From the IMG/VR virus record IMGVR_UViG_3300025391_000491: DNA of 64,000 bases, one strand, 5' to 3'. The DNA comes from an uncultured virus (IMG/VR IMGVR_UViG_3300025391_000491). Its lineage: Duplodnaviria > Heunggongvirae > Uroviricota > Caudoviricetes. Positions 23 to 48,583 of this stretch are shown here, one piece after another (positions within the stretch are counted from its first letter, which is position 1; each line of letters starts with the position of its first letter). A model generated the notes under the pieces. The model saw nothing but the letters and a program-made list of their open reading frames with translations, was not told the origin of the DNA and ran no database searches. The position numbers and the translations under genes are program-made.

Positions 23-60
23 GAAAAACGTTGTTCAATTTTTCTCAGGGATGGGAAGAC

Positions 61-85
61 AAAAAGCACCGCAAGGTGCTTTTTT
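61..85. terminator. Intrinsic terminator, probably bidirectional
   Basis: aaaaa-gcacc-GCAA-ggtgc-tttttt. Confidence 0.85.
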
Positions 86-140
86 GTTGACTTTTGTGCC
101 TATAAATGTTATTATGGAGCTAACAAATATAAATAAACAT

Positions 141-884
141 ATGAATAAATACAAACAATGGTACGCAAATATTACAGAACGAGCCAAAAATCGTCATCTG
201 GATTCCTATACAGAAAGTCATCATATAGTACCACGCAGTTTGGGTGGCGGTGATGAAGCAGATAATCTAGTAGATCTCACAGCCAGAGAGCACTTTGTTT
301 GTTACTGGCTATTGGTTAAGATGACTGCAGGACAAGAACACCATAAAATGCTAAATGCACTTAGAATGATGCGAGCAGAAAAGCAAGGACAACAAAGATA
401 TAACACAAAGATTACCGCACGAGTTTATGAAAACATTAAACAAGAATATGCCAAATTACAAAGCGAAAGTCTTAAAGGTAAAGGAAACGGATTTTACGGT
501 AAAACACATACGCCAGAAGCAAGAGAAAAAATTAGACAAAAGAATTTAGGTAATAAACTAACACCAGAACAACATGCAAGATTGGTAGCAAACACAACTG
601 GCAAAAAGAAACCACCTATAACAGATGAGCATAGGGCAAAATTATCAGCCGCACAATCAGGAAAAAATAACCCACGCTATGGTGTAGAAGTGTCAGAAAA
701 AACTCGTGCAAAAATATCAGAGAAAGCAAAAGGTCGTAAACAGTCAGCAGAGACGGTACAAAAGAAGGCCGATGCTATACGTGGATTAAAACGTGAGAAA
801 CTGCTGTGCCCCAACTGCAATCAACAGGTGGCAGTGAACGGATACGCCCGCTGGCACGGTGCTCGTTGCCGCCGGGTCGTATAA
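141..884 (+). CDS. HNH homing endonuclease with NUMOD3 repeats and C-terminal Zn finger
   Basis: ESHHIVPRSLGG...NLVDLTAREHF; GFYGKTHTPE; CPNC...RWHGARC. AT-rich. Start 141 chosen because it follows TATAAATA at 128-135. Confidence 0.9.
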   Translation: MNKYKQWYANITERAKNRHLDSYTESHHIVPRSLGGGDEADNLVDLTAREHFVCYWLLVKMTAGQEHHKMLNALRMMRAEKQGQQRYNTKITARVYENIKQEYAKLQSESLKGKGNGFYGKTHTPEAREKIRQKNLGNKLTPEQHARLVANTTGKKKPPITDEHRAKLSAAQSGKNNPRYGVEVSEKTRAKISEKAKGRKQSAETVQKKADAIRGLKREKLLCPNCNQQVAVNGYARWHGARCRRVV

Positions 885-30414: not shown

Positions 30415-30448
30415 TTATCTTTTCCTGTTCGTATTGATAAATAGTTGT

Positions 30449-31201
30449 ATGTTCATTAAAAACAAGTATACACAATGTTATCAAAAAATTATTAATCAAT
30501 CACAAAATCGTCAGTTAATAGACGAATACACCGAACGTCATCATATTATTCCTAAAAGCATGGGCGGTGATGATAATATACATAATATAGCAACGCTTAC
30601 AGCGAGAGAACATTTTATTTGCCATTTATTGCTAACAAAAATGGTTAGCGGTCAAGAAAAATATAAGATGGTAAAAGCGGCATTAATGATGGCCCATATA
30701 ACAGGACCCGGTCAAGAAAGATACAAAGTCACTGGTCGGGTGTACGAGTTGCTAAAGTCGTCTCAGCCGCCTGTGCCGCAATCTACAAGAAATAAAAATA
30801 GTAAATCTCAAAAAGAAAGATTTAAAAATATACCAGGCACATTCAAGAATAAAAAACACAACGAAGAAACATTAAAAAAATTACGAAAACCTAAATCAGA
30901 AGAACAAAAATTAAATCATTCGCGTACTATGACAGGCAGATTTAAGGGTCGTATTCCACACAACAAAGGCAAAACATACGAAGAATTGTACGGCAATAAA
31001 AGAGCCACAGAATTAAAGGAAAAAGTAAAACGTCCAGGTGAAAAAAACGGATTCTATGGTAAACAACATTCGGCTATACAACGAGAGAGAAAAAGACAAG
31101 AAAAACTTGCGGCTCCTAAGAAAATGTGTTATTATTGTAATACAGAAGTAGATCCAATGAATTATGGGAGATGGCACGGTGATAAATGTAAACACAAATA
31201 A
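30449..31201 (+). CDS. HNH/NUMOD3 homing endonuclease
   Basis: ERHHIIPKSMGG...LTAREHFICH; GFYGKQHS; CYYC..RWHGDKC; AT-rich; TAAATA at 30438. Confidence 0.9.
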   Translation: MFIKNKYTQCYQKIINQSQNRQLIDEYTERHHIIPKSMGGDDNIHNIATLTAREHFICHLLLTKMVSGQEKYKMVKAALMMAHITGPGQERYKVTGRVYELLKSSQPPVPQSTRNKNSKSQKERFKNIPGTFKNKKHNEETLKKLRKPKSEEQKLNHSRTMTGRFKGRIPHNKGKTYEELYGNKRATELKEKVKRPGEKNGFYGKQHSAIQRERKRQEKLAAPKKMCYYCNTEVDPMNYGRWHGDKCKHK

Positions 31202-39200: not shown

Positions 39201-39809
39201 ATGAAAAAATTCCACGATTATCTGGCCGAGTCCGAACGAACCTATAACTATCGAATCAAGATAGCCGGCGATGTACCAACCGGATTCGTCAAGGACCTGG
39301 GTGAAAAACTCAAGCAGTTCGACGTTGTAAAAATGTCAACAGCCAAGACCACACCAGTACAGGCACGCCTGAACGACTTTCCAGAAATTGAAAACGATCG
39401 AGTCACACACATGGATGTGGAGTTCCGGTATCCGGCTGTAGAGCCGCAGATCAAACAGATTGCGCAACTGTTGATGTTTGATCCCAACAGAATCAGAATG
39501 TTGACCACACCCTACGAGGACAGCATGGATGAGGAAACTCGCAAGATCCAAGAGCAAAACCAGGATCTTCTCGCAGATACAGATTTTCCTGCACCCGACA
39601 AACAGCAAAAGGCCTTGTACAAAGACTACAGTACCGAATACAACAATCATGCTGTGTTAAAAAATGCGTACAGAAGCGAATACACCGTGGCCGGTGGACC
39701 AACACCAGCCGCCAAGACAACCAATGATCTGCCCATGGGCAACAAGAGTCCAATGACCACGATCAAGTTGCCACCAAAACCGCCCACCGGCAGTAAACCA
39801 AGAGGATAA
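39201..39809 (+). CDS. Putative internal head protein
   Basis: N-terminus MKKFHDYLAE resembles the T4 capsid-targeting sequence. Confidence 0.6.
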   Translation: MKKFHDYLAESERTYNYRIKIAGDVPTGFVKDLGEKLKQFDVVKMSTAKTTPVQARLNDFPEIENDRVTHMDVEFRYPAVEPQIKQIAQLLMFDPNRIRMLTTPYEDSMDEETRKIQEQNQDLLADTDFPAPDKQQKALYKDYSTEYNNHAVLKNAYRSEYTVAGGPTPAAKTTNDLPMGNKSPMTTIKLPPKPPTGSKPRG

Positions 39810-39811
39810 AC

Positions 39812-41851
39812 ATGGATAATTTTTTCTACAATCTAAACAAAAAGATGGCTGATCTGGCCAAACAACAGGATCTGACCGAAGGCGCCGTGAACGAACGCGA
39901 CATGGGCAAACACAACAATGCCACCACCGGTTTCAAGGCTTTGGCCAAGAAAGCCGGCAAAGAATATGGTAGCAAAGCGGCCGGCGAACGTGTGGCTGGT
40001 GCTCAATTCCAAAAGATGAAAAAAGCCAGCCAGCTGGAAGAAGACGGCATGGAAGAAAGTGCCTTACAAGGTTATCTTGGTAAAAAGAAATATGGCCCCG
40101 AAGGCATGCAGGCCCTGCAAAAGGCCGGTCGTGAACATGCAGGCAAGGCCAAAATGGACAAGATCCGCGATCGCTATGACAAGATGGACGAAGCTGACAT
40201 GGAAGAAGGCAATGCCTTCAGCGGCGCATTGGCCAATGCCAAAAAAGATCATAAAAGCGAATTTGAAGTCGATGGAAAAAAATACAAAGTGGTCGAAGCT
40301 GATCCGACTGGCATGGAGGAAGGTGCAGGTAACGAGCCCGACACCGAACACCAGATAAAACAACCTCGTCACAAAGTGGGCCGAGGCGAACTCAATCAAG
40401 TTGCTGGTATGCAAAATGTCAAGTCACACAATCGAGAGCATCCGCTCAAGAATGTTGCCAAAGGCATCAAGGCATTCGTCACAGGCAAAGAAGAACCCAT
40501 GGACGAAGAAAAAGAATCACGCAGCAAAGGTACAGCGTTTGATCCTGAGCACATGAAAAAAAGCAAAACCGACCGAGAAGGCACTGGCAACTTTGACAAG
40601 AAAAAAGTCAGTACCGGTACCGTGTACACTCGCCGTCACCGAGAAGATGACGAAGAAGAAGTCAAGAGCGATCAACCCAAGAAAAAAGGCCGTCCAAAAG
40701 GTCCTGCCAAAGGTCCTGAGCGTGTGACAGCCAAAAGCTACAAATACAAACAAGGTCGCCCAGTTAAAGAAATGGAAATTCCTATTACCAGTCAAGGCGA
40801 ATACGACCAAGAAGGCGACGAAGTCAAAGGCGACATGCACACCGTGATCCGTCATGCCCAAGAACTAGAAAAGCACTTGAGAGACAGTGAAAATCTACCA
40901 ACCTGGATCATTGAAAAAGTGGGCCAGATCAAGGGCATGATGACCAGTATCTCGGATTATATGTTGTCACAACACGAACGTGGCGCCGAACACGAAACCG
41001 GCCAAGAAGGAATCCGTATTGCCGAAAAAGCAGTCAGTGTCAAGCAACGTAGGGCTGCTGGCATAGCACATGCCGCACAAAAAGGCGAGATACCTAAAAA
41101 AGAATTGCGCGGAGCATCAAAAGCCATGGCCCAGATGCCAGCCGGAGAACTACACAAGTTTGCAAGCACCAAAGAAAAAGGCCTTCCAACAAAAGTCAAA
41201 GAAAACGGCAAACCAGACTTTTTAGATCTAGACAACGATGGCAACAAGACTGAGCCAATGAAACAGGCAGCCAAACAGGTCAAGGGCAAGAAAAAAGAAG
41301 TTGACGAAACCACTACCTCGGGCAGTGTGGCCACGGCTACAGCAGCTCCCAAAGCCAGCAAGGGTATGGCATTTGGCAAGGGTGTGTACGAAGGTGCCAT
41401 CGCTGAAAGTTACGAAAACAAGTTGAGCAACATGCTGGCAGAAGGCATGAACGTCAGCGTAAACATGGGACAAGACGAAAGTGGACAGATGCGTAACAAC
41501 ATCACAGTCAGTGCTGACGGTGAGGAAGCTGACAAGTTGGCCCAGTTGTTAAAACTGGCCGGCATGCATCATGAACCTGAAGCGGCCTGTGCAACTTGCG
41601 GAAGTGCACCATGCGGCTGTGCCGAGCAGGTAGACGAGAATCAACCCGATTGGCCAACCAACACCGAGACCATGGACGGACATGATCCACACATGCGAAA
41701 TCACTCAGGTGGCCTAAACGGTGCCAAGAGCAGTGGTCAGACCACTATACCAGTTCTTAACCGCAACAGACAGCGTCAGACCAGCATGGATGAAAATGTC
41801 GAACTTGAGCGCACTCTTTTTAAAACATGGAAGAATTACAAAGGCCAATGA
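39812..41851 (+). CDS. Modular, highly charged putative internal head polyprotein
   Basis: Many hydrophobic-X-E junctions; DUF3008-like, DxDxDG and GRP modules. Confidence 0.65.
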   Translation: MDNFFYNLNKKMADLAKQQDLTEGAVNERDMGKHNNATTGFKALAKKAGKEYGSKAAGERVAGAQFQKMKKASQLEEDGMEESALQGYLGKKKYGPEGMQALQKAGREHAGKAKMDKIRDRYDKMDEADMEEGNAFSGALANAKKDHKSEFEVDGKKYKVVEADPTGMEEGAGNEPDTEHQIKQPRHKVGRGELNQVAGMQNVKSHNREHPLKNVAKGIKAFVTGKEEPMDEEKESRSKGTAFDPEHMKKSKTDREGTGNFDKKKVSTGTVYTRRHREDDEEEVKSDQPKKKGRPKGPAKGPERVTAKSYKYKQGRPVKEMEIPITSQGEYDQEGDEVKGDMHTVIRHAQELEKHLRDSENLPTWIIEKVGQIKGMMTSISDYMLSQHERGAEHETGQEGIRIAEKAVSVKQRRAAGIAHAAQKGEIPKKELRGASKAMAQMPAGELHKFASTKEKGLPTKVKENGKPDFLDLDNDGNKTEPMKQAAKQVKGKKKEVDETTTSGSVATATAAPKASKGMAFGKGVYEGAIAESYENKLSNMLAEGMNVSVNMGQDESGQMRNNITVSADGEEADKLAQLLKLAGMHHEPEAACATCGSAPCGCAEQVDENQPDWPTNTETMDGHDPHMRNHSGGLNGAKSSGQTTIPVLNRNRQRQTSMDENVELERTLFKTWKNYKGQ

Positions 41852-42366
41852 AAAATCTACGAGACTATCTTGCTGAATCAGAATCTTGGATGCTGACACC
41901 AGCAGCTGGTGACGACTTTGGAATAGAATTGGCTGATGGCAGTCTAGTAGAATCCTATGTGTTAGAATCAGAATCGGGTGATGTATTGTTGGCAGCCACG
42001 ACAGAAATTGTCACAATGCTAGAATCGCGTGGCATGTTGAGCGATCATGAAACCGATGAAGAAATCGTTCTTGAAACCATGGGCTACGGTACCTTGGTTG
42101 GTGAAGAGGAAGACGAAATGGACGAGGCCAAATATCACGGCCGCGAAGTACCGCTTGGCAAGCCCATGAAGGGCGATGTAAAAAAATCAAAAGTGTATGT
42201 GAGAGATCCCTCAACCGGCAACATCAAAAAAGTAAACTTTGGTGATCCCAACATGCGAATCAAAAAAAGCAGTCCTGCACATAGAAAAAGTTTTAGAGCA
42301 AGACACCATTGCGAGAACCCCGGATCACGACTAAAAGCCCGTTATTGGTCGTGTCGTGCATGGTAA
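41848..42366 (+). CDS. Putative internal head protein with basic C-terminal module
   Basis: ATGA overlap; MKNLRDYLAE; MDE|AKYHG...SFRARH.C...ARYWSC. Confidence 0.7.
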   Translation: MKNLRDYLAESESWMLTPAAGDDFGIELADGSLVESYVLESESGDVLLAATTEIVTMLESRGMLSDHETDEEIVLETMGYGTLVGEEEDEMDEAKYHGREVPLGKPMKGDVKKSKVYVRDPSTGNIKKVNFGDPNMRIKKSSPAHRKSFRARHHCENPGSRLKARYWSCRAW

Positions 42367-42864: not shown

Positions 42865-43242
42865 ATGCGAGCCCGCGAGTTTATAATCGAAGAAAAAGAA
42901 GGCAAGTTGAATCCTGATCATTCATCAGTGATGCCAACTGCACGCAGAATTCGTGATCGAGGCGGATATGATCGTACCAATCATATGAATCGCATGATGA
43001 TGGCATTGGCCATGCACGACGGCAAAACAAAAAATGCCATACCAAAAGAACAAATGGATCCCAACAGCTGGGTAGAAAAATATAACACAGCACATCCTTA
43101 TACCAAAGAAGAAGACAACATGATAGTCGGCGCCATGAAAACGCTGGGTTCAGATCATCATCATGTGATATCAGACCATCGCAGTATTGAACCAACAGAT
43201 GTACACAAAATCAGCCCAGTCAAAGGATTTGGCGGTTATTGA
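42865..43242 (+). CDS. Putative internal head protein
   Basis: N-terminus MRAREFIIEE. Confidence 0.65.
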   Translation: MRAREFIIEEKEGKLNPDHSSVMPTARRIRDRGGYDRTNHMNRMMMALAMHDGKTKNAIPKEQMDPNSWVEKYNTAHPYTKEEDNMIVGAMKTLGSDHHHVISDHRSIEPTDVHKISPVKGFGGY

Positions 43243-44046: not shown

Positions 44047-45606
44047 ATGGCCGACGAAGCCAATCTAGTCAAGGCGCCACATCGGCGCCAGACCTACACC
44101 GAAATCCAGCTGTCAGAATTTGTGGCCTGTATGGATCCAGTCACAGGTCCGCACTACTTCATGGATAATTTTTTCCATATCCAGCATCCAACCAAGGGCA
44201 AGATGCTGTATCGGGCGTTCGACTATCAAAAACGCCTGATTGACACCTATCACAACTACAGATACAGCATCAGCATGATGCCTAGACAGACTGGTAAAAG
44301 TACCAGTGCTGCCGGTTATTTGCTATGGATGGCCATGTTTCGCCCAGACAGCACCATCTTGATTGCTGCACACAAGTACACTGGTAGCCAAGAGATCATG
44401 CAGAGAATACGTTATGCCTATGAGCTGTGTCCGGATCATATCCGTGCCGGTGTGACCAGCTACAACAAGGGCAACCTGGACTTTGAAAACGGGTCAAGGA
44501 TAGTATCGACCACTACAACAGAAAATACCGGTCGTGGTATGAGTATCACACTCCTGTACTGTGACGAGTTTGCATTCGTGCGTCCCACCATAGCACGCGA
44601 GTTCTGGACTTCGATCAGCCCTACCTTGGCCACTGGTGGTAAAGCCATCATTACCAGCACCCCCAACTCAGACGAAGATCAATTTGCCTTGATCTGGAAA
44701 GGAGCCAATCGATGTGAAGACAGCTACGGCAATCCTACCGAGATCGGCATCAATGGATTTAGAGCTTATAGAAGCTACTGGAACGAACATCCAGATAGAG
44801 ATGAACGTTGGGCCTCAGAACAGCGAGCCCAGCTGGGAGACGATCGTTTCCGGCGCGAAATGGGTTGCGAATTCTTGATCTACGAAGAGACCTTGATAGC
44901 ACCAGCCAAACTGGTAGACATGACCGGAATTGATCCGGTCGCGACCATAGGACAAGTGCGATGGTATCAGACACCCAAACCGGGACGTATCTACACTGTG
45001 AGTCTGGATCCCAGTCTGGGCACCGGTGGCGACAATGCGGCCATACAGATATTTGAAGCCAATACCACCGAGCAGATAGGCGAGTGGAAACACAACCGGA
45101 CAGCCATACCTGAACAGATACAACTGCTGGCATCGATCTGCGCCCATATCAACGAAACAGTAAAAAATCCTGAAAACATCTACTACAGCGTGGAAAACAA
45201 CAGCATAGGTGAAGCAGCCTTGGTCAGCTTGCAACAGTACGGTGAAGAAAACATCAAGGGCTATTTTTTAAGCGAAAGCGGAGCTGCTGGCCGCACGTAT
45301 AGAAAAGGGTTCAATACCACACACAAGAGCAAGATAGCTGCCTGCTCCAAACTCAAGACCTTGATCGAAACCGGCAAGATGAAGATACGCAGCAGGCCTT
45401 TGATCAGCGAACTCAAAACCTTTGTGGCAGCCAAGATGAGCTATGCGGCCAAAATTGGTGAAAGCGACGACTTGGTCATGGCCACCTTGCTGGCTGTACG
45501 AATGATGCAACAGCTACAAAACTATCATCCTGAAATGGACCGTCAGTTGAGAGATTTCAGCGACAACCTGATTCCACCAATGCCATTTGTGGCCACATTA
45601 CGATAA
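44047..45606 (+). CDS. terL: Terminase large subunit (T4 gp17-like)
   Basis: PRQTGKST Walker A; YCDEFAF Walker B; ITSTPN; LDPSLG.GGD; DDLVMA. Confidence 0.97.
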   Translation: MADEANLVKAPHRRQTYTEIQLSEFVACMDPVTGPHYFMDNFFHIQHPTKGKMLYRAFDYQKRLIDTYHNYRYSISMMPRQTGKSTSAAGYLLWMAMFRPDSTILIAAHKYTGSQEIMQRIRYAYELCPDHIRAGVTSYNKGNLDFENGSRIVSTTTTENTGRGMSITLLYCDEFAFVRPTIAREFWTSISPTLATGGKAIITSTPNSDEDQFALIWKGANRCEDSYGNPTEIGINGFRAYRSYWNEHPDRDERWASEQRAQLGDDRFRREMGCEFLIYEETLIAPAKLVDMTGIDPVATIGQVRWYQTPKPGRIYTVSLDPSLGTGGDNAAIQIFEANTTEQIGEWKHNRTAIPEQIQLLASICAHINETVKNPENIYYSVENNSIGEAALVSLQQYGEENIKGYFLSESGAAGRTYRKGFNTTHKSKIAACSKLKTLIETGKMKIRSRPLISELKTFVAAKMSYAAKIGESDDLVMATLLAVRMMQQLQNYHPEMDRQLRDFSDNLIPPMPFVATLR

Positions 45607-45616
45607 ATAATAAATC

Positions 45617-48583
45617 ATGGCAAAAGAAACTATTGGAAAAAAACTCTACGATTTGCTGGCCACCCGGGACTATGACAACTTCCAGGCCCTGGACAGCGCC
45701 ACTGGCAAGGTACCCGTAGATCCCAAAACAGGTGCACAGAATGTGGGCGAAGCCAACATGTTTGTGTTTGACTGGAGCTCCAGTCGCGGCAAAAACTACG
45801 GTACTGCTGTGATCTTGTTGACCGACGATCATGATCTTGAACTGTACTTTGGCGACAACCTAGGCAAGACCATGGAAGATCGCGAAGACAAAAACGAGTG
45901 GTTTGCATTCATGGAGCAGCTGAGACATTTTGCCACACGTACCAATTTCAACGGATTCAGACCGCTCAACATCAATCAACTGAGACACAGCCTGCAAGGG
46001 CAAGCTGCCATCCGGGAAGGACTTTTTGAAAGCTGGCAAGGTCGCAAGAACATGAGCTGGAACGGTGTGGCCACCGAAGCCAGACTCATGATACGTCACA
46101 AAAGAGACCTTGGACCCGACGAAGCCAGACACAGATATGTGGAGAGCCTGTTCATTGAAACAGCAGAAGGTGAACGTTACAAATTGCCATTTGTGAATCT
46201 AGGCGGTGGCAAGGCCATGCTGGAACATGTGCGCCAGGGTGGCAGACCCTACGATACAAGAGGTCAACACATAGCCAACATGATCCAAGAGATCAATATT
46301 TTGAGCAGATTTGAACGCAGCGTGGCCGGCGATGCCTTGATGGAAGGCGATACTGCGCAACTGGTGACCGAAGCTCACGGGTACAAACACAGTCTCAAAA
46401 CCAATCTCAAACGTCTGGCTACCGGACGCGGATACGCAGACTATTTTGAATCATGGAATCCGGCCAGCATCACTGAGCAAGATGTGGTAGTGGAAAGTCT
46501 CAAGCAACTGTTTGTAAAACAGACTCTGGACACCAGGATTGAACAAGCACTGCCGTTACTGGCAAAGATACAACAACAAGGACAAGCTATGAAAGAAGCC
46601 ACGATATTTGAAGCCTGGGCCAACCGCCTGGTAGAAGGAACCTGGAGCCTGCCGGACACTCCAGAAAAACAGCAACAGCTGATAGATTTTATGAGCCAGG
46701 AACAACCGGTTGGTGCCGATGCTACAGATGCCACTGAGCAACTGTATGACATCCTGGGCGATGATCAGTTGTTTGATCGACTGAGTGAGTTGGCCGATCA
46801 GCACCCTGACAGCGATTGCCGCCAGTTGGTTCTGGACCGCATGCAGGAACTCAGCGATGATCCAGATGTGCGAGAGGCCTTGGAAAAACTCAATGTCAAC
46901 ACAGATGCTACCATGCACCCAGCGGCGGCTACTCCAGCCGATCTAGGCGGTGATAGCGATGGCGGCGACATCGATGAAAGCATGAGTGACCACCAGCATC
47001 ATGTGTGGACTGTGCATTTTGCCGACGGAACCCAGCGTCGTGTACCAGTAGGCAGCGATGAATTTGATTACGAAATCAAACGTATCCAGGATCATTTTGC
47101 CAAACAGGGACTTGAAGTGGTTGACGTGGACACAGATACTGCCATACACGGTGAACCACCCGCTGAACCAGAAGATTATGAAAAGACCGAAGGTGTCGCA
47201 GAAGGTCATGCAGACCAACAACGCAAAGTGTTTAAGAAGAATGGCAAGCCAGTAGGCGAAGTCGGTATTGACCGTGAATCGAGCCCAGGTGTTGGTCAGT
47301 ATTACATGAAGCATTATGCTAGTGGTAAAGATTTGTCTGGGTATGATTCATACGAAGAAGCAGTAGCAGAACTAAAACATTGTCTAAAACAAGGTGTCGC
47401 AGAAGGTCATGCAGACCAACAACGCAAAGTGTTTAAGAAGAATGGCAAGCCAGTAGGCGAAGTCGGTATTGACCGTGAATCGAGCCCAGGTGTTGGTCAG
47501 TATTACATGAAGCATTATGCTAGTGGTAAAGATTTGTCTGGGTATGATTCATACGAAGAAGCAGTAGCAGAACTAAAACATTGTCTAAAACAAGGTGTGG
47601 CGGAAGGCTCAACTACACGAGGTGGGTTTGGTGGTTCAGCCAGTCAAGCACATCACGAAATTGAATGGCTTAAGAATAAGATTGAAACACTGAAACCGTT
47701 GTTGACCAAGAAACCCGGTGTTGCTCGTCAAATACGAGATTTGGAAAGACAGATCCGTGAGAGAGAACTGGCTATGGCATATCACGATCAAGGTGTGGCG
47801 GAAGATGCAATCCAATCTTTACGCAGAGCCGCTGGCTTGAATGAAAATGTGTTACGTGATAGCACCGGCAGCACACTGGATCATATTGCTGATAAATTCA
47901 AACGTGACATCCGAGATTTTGAAGCCACAGGCAATCTCAGTGATGATTTGTTTGACGCACTATACGATTATTACCAAGATGACATGCCATACGGTGTACA
48001 AAAAGCTCGCTCGGGCGATCCGCACGATTGGATCGCAGATCGAATCACTCAAGACTTAGGGTTACAACCAACCGATCTTGATCCGTTTGAAAAATTCAAA
48101 TTGCGTAATAACGCAGCTCGTGACCAAGCAGGCATGCCACCCAATCCAGATTTCCAAGAAGAACGTGATCCACATTCGGTAGATGGCGGCATGGCCAATG
48201 CGTTGTTGGCTGACGATGCCGTCTGCAACATGAGCGATCATGGTCATCATTGCCCGGTACACGGAATTGAAGAATGTTGGGGTGCTGAATCCATGCCCGG
48301 TATGGAAGAAGGCGCAGTTGGAGCTGTAGCAGGTGCAGTACTAGCTCCTGAACTGGGACCACTGGCCAGCCGTGTTGGTAGCATGGCACAAGATGCCATG
48401 ACCGATTCAGATGACGACCTTGACGAAGAAGGATTTGGTCTCAACCCAACTCCGGCAGCCATGGAAGAAGAACGCAGTCCGTTGGCTGGCATATATGGAC
48501 ATTCGGGCAAGATGAAGGAAGTGGGCCGTGACGTCGGCTTTTTGGACAGACTGAAAGAGCTGGCCGGCATGCGACAGGCATAA
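45617..48583 (+). CDS. Large modular acidic protein with GVAE-delimited cassettes
   Basis: 988 aa; four GVAE junctions; exact 67-aa duplication; TAAATA at 45604. Confidence 0.75.
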   Translation: MAKETIGKKLYDLLATRDYDNFQALDSATGKVPVDPKTGAQNVGEANMFVFDWSSSRGKNYGTAVILLTDDHDLELYFGDNLGKTMEDREDKNEWFAFMEQLRHFATRTNFNGFRPLNINQLRHSLQGQAAIREGLFESWQGRKNMSWNGVATEARLMIRHKRDLGPDEARHRYVESLFIETAEGERYKLPFVNLGGGKAMLEHVRQGGRPYDTRGQHIANMIQEINILSRFERSVAGDALMEGDTAQLVTEAHGYKHSLKTNLKRLATGRGYADYFESWNPASITEQDVVVESLKQLFVKQTLDTRIEQALPLLAKIQQQGQAMKEATIFEAWANRLVEGTWSLPDTPEKQQQLIDFMSQEQPVGADATDATEQLYDILGDDQLFDRLSELADQHPDSDCRQLVLDRMQELSDDPDVREALEKLNVNTDATMHPAAATPADLGGDSDGGDIDESMSDHQHHVWTVHFADGTQRRVPVGSDEFDYEIKRIQDHFAKQGLEVVDVDTDTAIHGEPPAEPEDYEKTEGVAEGHADQQRKVFKKNGKPVGEVGIDRESSPGVGQYYMKHYASGKDLSGYDSYEEAVAELKHCLKQGVAEGHADQQRKVFKKNGKPVGEVGIDRESSPGVGQYYMKHYASGKDLSGYDSYEEAVAELKHCLKQGVAEGSTTRGGFGGSASQAHHEIEWLKNKIETLKPLLTKKPGVARQIRDLERQIRERELAMAYHDQGVAEDAIQSLRRAAGLNENVLRDSTGSTLDHIADKFKRDIRDFEATGNLSDDLFDALYDYYQDDMPYGVQKARSGDPHDWIADRITQDLGLQPTDLDPFEKFKLRNNAARDQAGMPPNPDFQEERDPHSVDGGMANALLADDAVCNMSDHGHHCPVHGIEECWGAESMPGMEEGAVGAVAGAVLAPELGPLASRVGSMAQDAMTDSDDDLDEEGFGLNPTPAAMEEERSPLAGIYGHSGKMKEVGRDVGFLDRLKELAGMRQA
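47190..47591 (+). repeat. Exact 201-bp tandem duplication (2 copies)
   Basis: 47190-47390 = 47391-47591; each copy begins aaggtgtcgcagaaggt. Confidence 0.95.

Follow-up and report, generated by a model that had tools for sequence, protein, structure and literature searches.

An in-frame array of small modules bounded by a DNA-conserved GVAE junction in a gene of an uncultured giant myophage

Within 64,000 nucleotides of DNA from an uncultured virus of the class Caudoviricetes (IMG/VR record IMGVR_UViG_3300025391_000491; this whole stretch is hereafter the window), a single open reading frame (ORF) of 988 codons contains several copies of one short sequence, AAGGTGT(C/G)GC(A/G)GAAG. Translated as Gly-Val-Ala-Glu (GVAE), this junction divides part of the encoded protein into modules of about 67 residues, two of which are identical. 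Why would a gene repeat a junction that is kept not only as a peptide but also as DNA? The initial annotation proposed two functions at once, a recombination site through which mini-domains are gained, lost, or duplicated and a prohead protease site at which they are released inside the capsid. The comparative analysis described here leans, with confidence somewhat above even, toward such a dual reading, in which the junction provides in-frame recombination homology as DNA and a prohead protease site as peptide.

The junction, its modules, and the protein family

The junction is found at positions 47190, 47391, 47592, and 47790, always on the plus strand and with no mismatches, and a scan allowing up to two mismatches returned no further matches in the window. 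Dinucleotide-preserving shuffles give 0.32 expected matches and reached four in 1 of 100 cases. All four copies share the one ORF and read (E/Q)GVAE, with GVAE at residues 526-529, 593-596, 660-663, and 726-729, which confirms the four in-frame copies originally noted. Tandem Repeats Finder detects a period of 201 nucleotides across 47190-47607 (2.1 copies, 99% matches), and 47190-47390 is the same as 47391-47591, base for base. The repeated unit, module A, is followed by a different one, module B, that has no BLASTP match to module A even at E≤100. The earlier description of two identical 67-residue units and one unrelated unit of about 66 residues thus stands.

Module A is predicted to be a folded unit between flexible ends. 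Its AlphaFold2 model (mean predicted local distance difference test [pLDDT] score of 77) contains four strands and a C-terminal helix, and the junction residues (1-5 and 68-70) are the only parts with pLDDT below 50. Searches with module A yielded nothing below E 0.3 among PDB sequences and nothing below E 0.9 with Foldseek, and the module was not found in 50,697 GenBank phage records.

The protein that carries these modules belongs to a large family whose members differ in the region where the array lies. Of 8000 candidates scored in a word-indexed search, 2013 were homologues at E≤1e-3; the top 120 (616-1442 residues) are 50-100% identical to the window protein over approximately 45-60% of the query, which corresponds to its N-terminal domain (N-domain). 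In ten homologues a common plan was recognized: a conserved N-domain of about 420 residues is followed by a variable insert and then by a core, (A/T)ED-A-x-x-SLRRAAG...MPYGVQKA, that is conserved, after which come a Gly-rich stretch of variable sequence and a conserved C-terminal end. Where both anchors were found, the insert measures 43-444 residues, and it is about 51 residues long in more distant relatives. G-[VM]-[ATS]-E punctuates the inserts, and the last such motif directly precedes the conserved core. The closest homologues show this variation most directly: P0001 (921 residues) is the window protein with one copy of module A, and P0002 has both flanks 99% identical to those of the window protein and a wholly different insert. 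Close orthologues therefore keep the flanks and differ in the modules between them, as the initial annotation had suggested checking. The best explanation is that the region between the N-domain and the C-terminal part is an insertion hot spot for small, independently folding modules of about 55-95 residues, each ending in (Q)-G-V-A-E.

Module mobility, copy number, and junction DNA

The distribution of module A extends far beyond this protein family. HMMER searches with the module (70 residues) recovered 274 representatives of 50%-identity clusters, 190 of them at E≤1e-10 and 38 at E≤1e-30. Because a highly conserved module is present in 274 otherwise dissimilar protein clusters, module A must move between genes. 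The best 150 of the 274 hosts range from 75 to 1648 residues and carry the module at any position, with 48-99% identity, and in nearly every case it is bounded on both sides by (Q)G[VM][ATS]E. Splitting these 150 proteins at G[VMLI][ATSV]E and clustering the pieces gave 539 pieces in 293 families; module A has 87 distinct neighbour families on its left and 92 on its right, and 13 of the 150 contain a tandem A-A. The inner pieces have a median length of 67 residues (interquartile range 61-93), in a sample dominated by module A.

Individual contigs provide examples of this mobility. In IMG/VR contigs L043 and L044, module A is part of 277-residue and 428-residue proteins that are not orthologous to the window gene. 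L034 encodes an unrelated multi-module protein, with module A present once, part of whose DNA shares 96-99% identity with window 47150-47804. This segment runs from the end of the module before junction 1 through junction 1, A, and B to junction 4, whose last base, 47804, is also where the match stops. The suggestion that the same module might appear in different genes is thereby borne out. Contigs that diverge from the window likewise break at junction edges (47189, 47388, 47591, 47606 in two runs, and 47805), and one loose contig end falls at 47202, inside junction 1. Other loose ends lie at 47150, 47332, 47521, 47981, 47984, 48018 (two runs), and 48084.

The closest related genome record, G001 (IMG/VR; 199,683 bp, 58% complete), shows 7 differences from the window across the approximately 60 kb that they share and has an identical two-copy array. 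A motif scan of G001 allowing one mismatch found six copies, four in the array and two in a gene for a 707-residue protein, and none with the reversed control. The latter gene (179932-182055, L008:3933-6056) is located about 137 kb away; its junctions read DQGVAEGF and KQGVVEGH, one with the identical 15-mer, and small ORFs adjoining it begin MRASEFVTEN, MRAQEFVPEA, and (V)RAEEFVTEA. Another module that recurs, ENFADGK...MKSGKKK, is found at the C-terminal end of different proteins (L008:999-1487, L043:3-362, and L044:3366-4013). In L044, this module is fused to a deaminase-like protein whose counterpart in G001 is without it.

Copy number of module A varies between near-identical contigs, one of the initial annotation's suggested checks. 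In the 90%-identity cluster, the one-copy form of 921 residues is present on 11 contigs (9+1+1) and the two-copy form of 988 residues on 3. Logan contigs of four runs (X1, X8, X9, and X15) were aligned to 46900-48100, and in three of the four a single unitig covers the joint between the A copies (Table 1). The tandem duplication is therefore present in reads, since the span of the unitig corresponds to exactly 23 overlapping 31-mers that only an A-to-A joint yields. For X15, no A-to-A unitig was among the matches listed, and contigs show presence only. Unitig depths for the upstream flank, downstream flank, A-to-A joint, and module A are, respectively, 15.6, 17.2, 53.7, and 73.3 in X1; 303, 358, 909, and 1133-1347 in X8; and 14.3, 18.1, 34.9, and 47.9 in X9. 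The sum of the upstream flank and joint depths roughly equals the module A depth in each run, which fits an array of about 3.4-4.4 copies, although contig depth cannot be equated with copy number and unitigs may be common to other organisms; a 39-nucleotide unitig at the edge between A and junction 3 (depth 30.4 in X1) is shared with other genomes. The joint unitig is 2.4-3.4 times as deep as that of the upstream flank in the three runs, so that the mean copy number is possibly greater than two and two copies may be a lower bound for many genomes, or the same array may be carried by other genomes in the samples. Excised circular units may also yield the same A-to-A joint. The two identical units first described are thus present in the assembly, but the true number is not necessarily two, given the disagreement among contigs and the unitig depths.

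These data also bear on the possibility that the two-copy array is an assembly artefact and that the modules, instead of being internal cargo, are unexceptional, fixed domains of a structural protein on the particle surface. An artefact would be in keeping with the single copy in most near-identical contigs, the difficulty that exact 201-bp repeats pose for short reads, and the several contigs that break within the array. It is nonetheless hardly likely at all, given the joint-specific k-mers that form a unitig in three runs at well above flank depth, the two-copy protein on more than one contig, the tandem A-A in other hosts, and the different module content of close relatives.

Conservation of the junction as DNA was assessed in 49 loci chosen via the core of module A, not via the junction, which contain 69 GVAE junctions in distinct contexts. 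The identical 12-mer GGTGTGGCGGAA is present in 48 of these, compared with 0.7% expected from the codon usage of the same loci. The Ala codon is GCG, the rarest Ala codon, in 90% of junctions (9% in the background and 8% in other Ala-Glu pairs), and the Val codon is GTG in 83% (22% in the background). Alignment of 31 distinct DNA copies of module A, with 61-94% protein identity, permits a comparison within the same sequences. The modal codon accounts for 95-96% of copies at Gly, 71-76% at Val, and 86-88% at Ala in both junctions; for nine invariant codons of the module interior (Gly, Val, Pro, and Ala), its share is 35-65%. This contrast is the informative part of the statistics. Conservation reaches into the preceding AAG CAA codons. 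The earlier remark that the junction is conserved in DNA, including some synonymous positions, consequently holds well beyond the window.

The exact 16-mer form of the junction is found in at least 132 IMG/VR stretches (171 matches), 29 of which have two or more; the spacings are multiples of 3 in 39 of 39 cases, and the QGVAE frame is open for 168 of the 171 matches. The reversed 16-mer is found in 21 stretches. The motif is neither confined to one locus nor, given the different inserts of close orthologues, tied to invariant modules.

Several results nevertheless weigh against a role for the junction as DNA. A synonymous 16-mer built from the commonest codons, CAAGGTGTTGCAGAAG, is present in at least 120 IMG/VR stretches, with a single match each among the matches listed, and raw IMG/VR counts were for that reason rejected as a test of DNA conservation. 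Some codons in the interior of module A are also well kept, for example GTT at V18 (92%) and GCA at A53 (89%). Moreover, the junction copies are related by descent and are not independent events, so the codon statistics are inflated. With about 12-18 nucleotides, the conserved stretch is also a short substrate for homologous recombination; exchange in T4 is efficient only over longer homologies.

The last two points would be expected if the junction were only a peptide signal, serving as a protease site or a flexible linker. Its sameness in DNA would then stem from recent common descent of each module together with its junction and would have no part in recombination, and new combinations would come from illegitimate recombination at any position, with selection keeping the frame and the site. 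Also in line with such a signal is the constancy of the peptide where the DNA has drifted, as the junction Glu occupies P1 in 97% of copies and P3 stays aliphatic (V, M, L, or I) in variants such as GMAE, GVTE, DVAE, and PIAE. This explanation is judged unlikely, because the silent sites of the junction are more uniform than the nine invariant codons inside the modules, the preferred Ala codon is the rarest one, similarity stops exactly at the junction edge, and the duplication crossover falls in a shared AAGGTGT.

Alternatively, a dedicated enzyme could act on the junction DNA and move cassettes in the manner of integron attC sites or the mini-circles of promoter-early stem-loop (PeSL) elements; it might be a site-specific recombinase, a nuclease of the homing type, or a polymerase that switches templates. 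Such an enzyme would account for 12-18 nucleotides being kept nearly letter for letter over many contigs, and there is a precedent in the PeSL motifs of T4-like phages, for which cassette exchange and mini-circle excision are reported in the available text of PMC4122927. Two HNH homing endonuclease genes are present in the window. However, no recombinase or nuclease gene lies consistently beside the arrays in the loci examined, the arrays are scattered over many genes, and the motif by inspection is without inverted-repeat structure, which together make a dedicated enzyme distinctly improbable.

A further possibility, that the nucleotide conservation serves the mRNA, would make module shuffling a side effect of either a Shine-Dalgarno-like AAGGUG pause that allows modules to fold or an RNA processing site. 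The conserved stretch does start with AAGGTG, and its extension into AAG CAA could be read in the same way, but conservation is strongest at GTG GCG GAA, which a Shine-Dalgarno-like pause leaves unexplained, and no in-frame start codon directly follows the junction. An mRNA function is accordingly considered very unlikely.

Under the dual reading, the sequence (AAG)CAAGGTGTGGCGGAA, near-constant at silent sites, would give otherwise unrelated modules a shared in-frame homology. Unequal or ectopic recombination between junctions would duplicate, delete, or swap whole modules with the frame kept: two junctions in one gene would lead to duplication or deletion, and junctions in different genes or in co-infecting phages would lead to swap or insertion. 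The array itself retains a trace of one such event. Its middle junction joins the end of module A (…AAACA) to the junction 1 form (AGGTGTCGCAGAAGG), which places the duplication crossover in the shared AAGGTGT. Once formed, the 201-bp repeats would drive expansion and contraction of the array. Modules with consensus DNA would stay exchangeable and spread, and silent-site conservation could in this way be maintained without benefit to the single phage; selection for module release would keep the peptide. A function of the junction as the site of module gain, loss, and duplication is well supported by comparison, as inserts, mobility, copy number, breakpoints, and silent-site conservation all point to it.

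The candidate protease site

The proposed peptide function of the junction is modelled on phage T4. According to the available portions of PMC9026906, PMC5694885, and PMC3012670, the T4 protease gp21 cuts after Glu in L/I-X-E, and leaders of 10 residues with this site at their end load diverse proteins into the head. The junction V-A-E, with M, L, or I variants at P3, fits an aliphatic-x-Glu pattern and not the strict T4 rule. In 75,736 residues of host proteins, GVAE occurs 337 times versus 2.8 expected, an approximately 120-fold over-representation, whereas five of six scrambled orders occur 0-2 times and AEGV occurs 22 times. By analogy, then, a T4-type head protease may cut after Val-Ala-Glu, although the case for this is circumstantial. 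Such a prohead protease would recognize aliphatic-small-Glu in the disordered linker and cut after E529, E596, E663, and E729, freeing mini-proteins of about 7 kDa inside the capsid to travel with the DNA.

Other features of the host proteins are consistent with a capsid destination. The pattern [ILVFM]-x-E is present in the first 15 residues of 87 of the 150 hosts, compared with 21% of internal Met windows, and a strict leader pattern is present in 32 of 150, compared with 0.6%. Some hosts read leader, QGVAE, and module in that order, and modules other than A are mostly basic (median pI 8.9), a property in common with T4 internal proteins. Furthermore, three of the five giant phage records that contain the 16-mer (G003, G004, and G006) encode a gp21-type Peptidase_S77 above the Pfam cut-off. 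G004 has an N-domain orthologue (53% identical), and its S77 gene is located between genes for an acidic protein and a coiled-coil scaffold-like protein. The G004 protease (L243:1447-2079) begins MKTLREQL, resembling the MKTLRE... leaders of many module A hosts.

Not all findings agree with release by such a protease. P3 of the junction is Val, not the Leu or Ile of T4, and the 988-residue protein, which starts MAKETIGKKLYDLLATRD, has no L/I-X-E leader motif in its first 15 residues. The 58% of G001 that is available yielded neither S77 nor a major capsid protein or portal, and no S77 was found in G002, which is 99% complete and has an N-domain orthologue (54% identical). Pfam searches of G001 for S77 and Gp23 gave no match, but the controls were silent too, which makes this result uninformative; the G004 protease as query returned nothing in G001, G002, or G005; and PHROGs assigned no capsid, portal, or S77 gene among 113 further ORFs of G001. 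Cleavage, packaging, and injection of the modules are regarded as plausible on circumstantial grounds.

Separately, two protease genes are present in G001: one is ClpP-like (L014:4327-4926), with additional matches to 'head maturation protease' PHROGs, and the other encodes a Lon-like ATP-dependent enzyme (L017:6693-9041). The 988-residue protein itself has 32 [VILM]-x-E tripeptides, versus 16.1 (sd 3.5) in residue shuffles. Upstream of the terminase in the window, small ORFs have T4-leader-like starts: MKKFHDYLAES (39201-39806), MKNLRDYLAES (41848-42363), and MRAREFIIEE (42865-43239). These three are candidate capsid-targeted proteins, and none of them has a GVAE-type junction.

Genomic setting and relation to known phage systems

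The window is part of the genome of an uncultured giant myophage. Genes for tail fibre, sheath, tube, head-closure, and adaptor proteins lie upstream of the 988-codon gene, which is followed by genes for a gp32-like single-strand DNA-binding protein and a UvsX-like recombinase (Pfam and PHROGs). The HNH homing endonuclease genes (phrog_655) are at window 51-881 and 30434-31198, inside the structural gene block. Contigs that encode the protein family reach 332-340 kb, and the metagenome runs that contain the sequence are from freshwater and lakes. The features of the locus are listed in Table 1.

Table 1. Features of the array-bearing gene and its upstream neighbour (window positions)
Feature	Positions	Strand	Description	Supporting observation
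Large terminase (TerL)	44047..45606			Pfam and PHROGs
Gene for probable modular virion protein	45617..48583	+	988 residues	Single ORF; directly 3' of the large terminase
Conserved N-terminal domain	45617..46900	+	About residues 1-428	Orthologues 73-76% identical in DNA as far as window 46872-46908
Start of variable insert	46901..47191	+	Acidic linker, then module HVWTVHF...PEDYEKTE from residue 462, ending at junction 1	Homology to orthologues is lost near 46900 and returns at 47789-47801
Junction 1	47190..47204	+	AAGGTGTCGCAGAAG; E-G-V-A-E, then G; Val and Ala codons non-consensus	
Module A, copy 1	47204..47404	+	Residues 530-596, 67 residues, pI 7.0	
Junction 2	47391..47405	+	AAGGTGTCGCAGAAG; A-to-A duplication joint	53-nucleotide unitig 47368-47420, no mismatches, runs X1, X8, and X9
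Module A, copy 2	47405..47605	+	Residues 597-663, identical to copy 1	
Junction 3	47592..47606	+	AAGGTGTGGCGGAAG; consensus DNA form	Contigs of runs X9 and X15 diverge directly after 47606
Module B	47606..47803	+	Residues 664-729, 66 residues, pI 9.3	A-to-B join also in P0129 and L034
Junction 4	47790..47804	+	AAGGTGTGGCGGAAG; right edge of insert	[VILM]-[ATS]-E-D before the mid domain in many orthologues
Conserved C-terminal part	47804..48583	+	DAIQSLRRAAG...MPYGVQKA core, variable Gly-rich stretch, conserved end SPLAGxYGHSGKM...LKEL	

Indirect evidence on the nature of the protein comes from the N-domain. The PHROGs profile phrog_13484, 'virion structural protein', weakly matches residues 137-278 with E 8.3e-9, a family assignment that applies to the N-domain only. 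In tblastn searches, the N-domain matched 25 jumbo phage records (E 9e-14 to 1e-5), and proteins of PA5oct-like and Rak2-like jumbo phages are 27-31% identical to it over residues of about 130-325. One of these distant homologues, PA5oct gp278, is annotated 'virion structural protein, ESI-MS/MS'; its gene is two genes past the terminase, and the neighbourhood from terminase to UvsX is as in the window. The AlphaFold2 model of the N-domain has a pLDDT of 71, and a Foldseek search with it returned nothing informative (best E 0.13). VIA-align matches of residues 213-307 (Z up to 8.7) were dismissed as generic helical bundles only. Pfam gave no family above its curated cut-off for the whole 988-residue protein, and a PDB sequence search with the N-domain gave nothing of note. 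Additionally, modules related to HVWTVHF...PEDYEKTE, which precedes junction 1, are present in P0017 and L034. The product is probably a head-internal virion protein of a giant myophage from freshwater whose genes for replication and packaging are T4-like.

The nearest functional likeness is to the T4 internal proteins IPI, IPII, IPIII, and Alt, which, in the available text of PMC9026906 and PMC3012670, are small, diverse, often basic proteins that enter the head by way of a short conserved leader and are freed by a protease cutting after the Glu of a three-residue motif. T4-related phages differ in their repertoire of internal proteins, which were proposed to be shuffled (Repoila 1994, as cited in the accessible part of PMC4122927). 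T4 encodes each of these proteins in a gene of its own, whereas the modules described here follow one another in a continuous reading frame as parts of long proteins. Their signal recurs internally, as GVAE, in addition to its N-terminal occurrence; Val predominates at P3, the DNA of the signal is held fixed even at silent sites, and the cleavage would be by analogy. For the giant myophages phiKZ, 201phi2-1, and SPN3US, PMC5694885 and PMC9026906, as far as their available text goes, similarly describe gp21-related proteases that process a large number of head proteins after the Glu of short motifs, with multiple cuts common in a single protein. However, their motifs are S/A/G-X-E and the cuts remove propeptides, and the portions at hand describe no DNA-conserved linker or module exchange for those sites.

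At the DNA level, the closest parallel is the PeSL of T4-like phages, in which short conserved DNA motifs flank variable cassettes whose insertion, deletion, and replacement were proposed to occur by recombination between copies (available text of PMC4122927). As that text presents it, a PeSL is an intergenic unit of promoter, hairpin, and ribosome-binding site that moves whole genes, whereas the GVAE junction sits in frame within coding sequence and moves units smaller than a gene. The intergenic placement of a PeSL is not found here, as the four copies lie in one open frame and nearly all IMG/VR copies are likewise in an open QGVAE frame. In the parts of the literature that a search brought up, no description was found of an in-frame, DNA-conserved linker bounding exchangeable sub-gene modules. 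A text search for QGVAE, GVAEG, and QGVAEG led to alpha-synuclein and similar topics, with no phage work among the matches listed. Polyvalent proteins of phages and conjugative elements, reportedly described by Iyer et al. in 2017, are said to be long, to have many exchangeable domains, and to be delivered into the recipient cell, sometimes after processing; their domains are reportedly large and enzymatic, with no single DNA-level linker. New here are the copy-number variation between near-identical contigs, the read-derived duplication joint with a probable array of more than two copies, and the near-identical A-B block in an unrelated gene that ends at a junction.

In its fullest form, the proposal would be that of a true in-frame cassette system, a possibility that is put forward tentatively. 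A linker of about 17-18 nucleotides would be both recombination signal and protease site; dozens of capsid-targeted proteins would draw on modules of about 65 residues that are copied, lost, and passed from one protein or phage to another; and arrays of the type A-A(-A-A) would expand and contract on ecological time scales, tuning the dose of injected mini-proteins. If this is true, phages would have a coding-level analogue of integron or PeSL cassettes, in which one short sequence keeps the frame, supplies homology for exchange, and encodes the release site. Copy numbers of such arrays in short-read assemblies would also prove to be wrong, cargo of this kind could be recognized in metagenomes by a simple rule, and efforts to pack several small proteins into one capsid would have a natural design to follow. 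For the giant phages themselves, it would explain the diversification of the proteins that they deliver with their DNA, which are likely to be anti-defence or DNA-handling factors.

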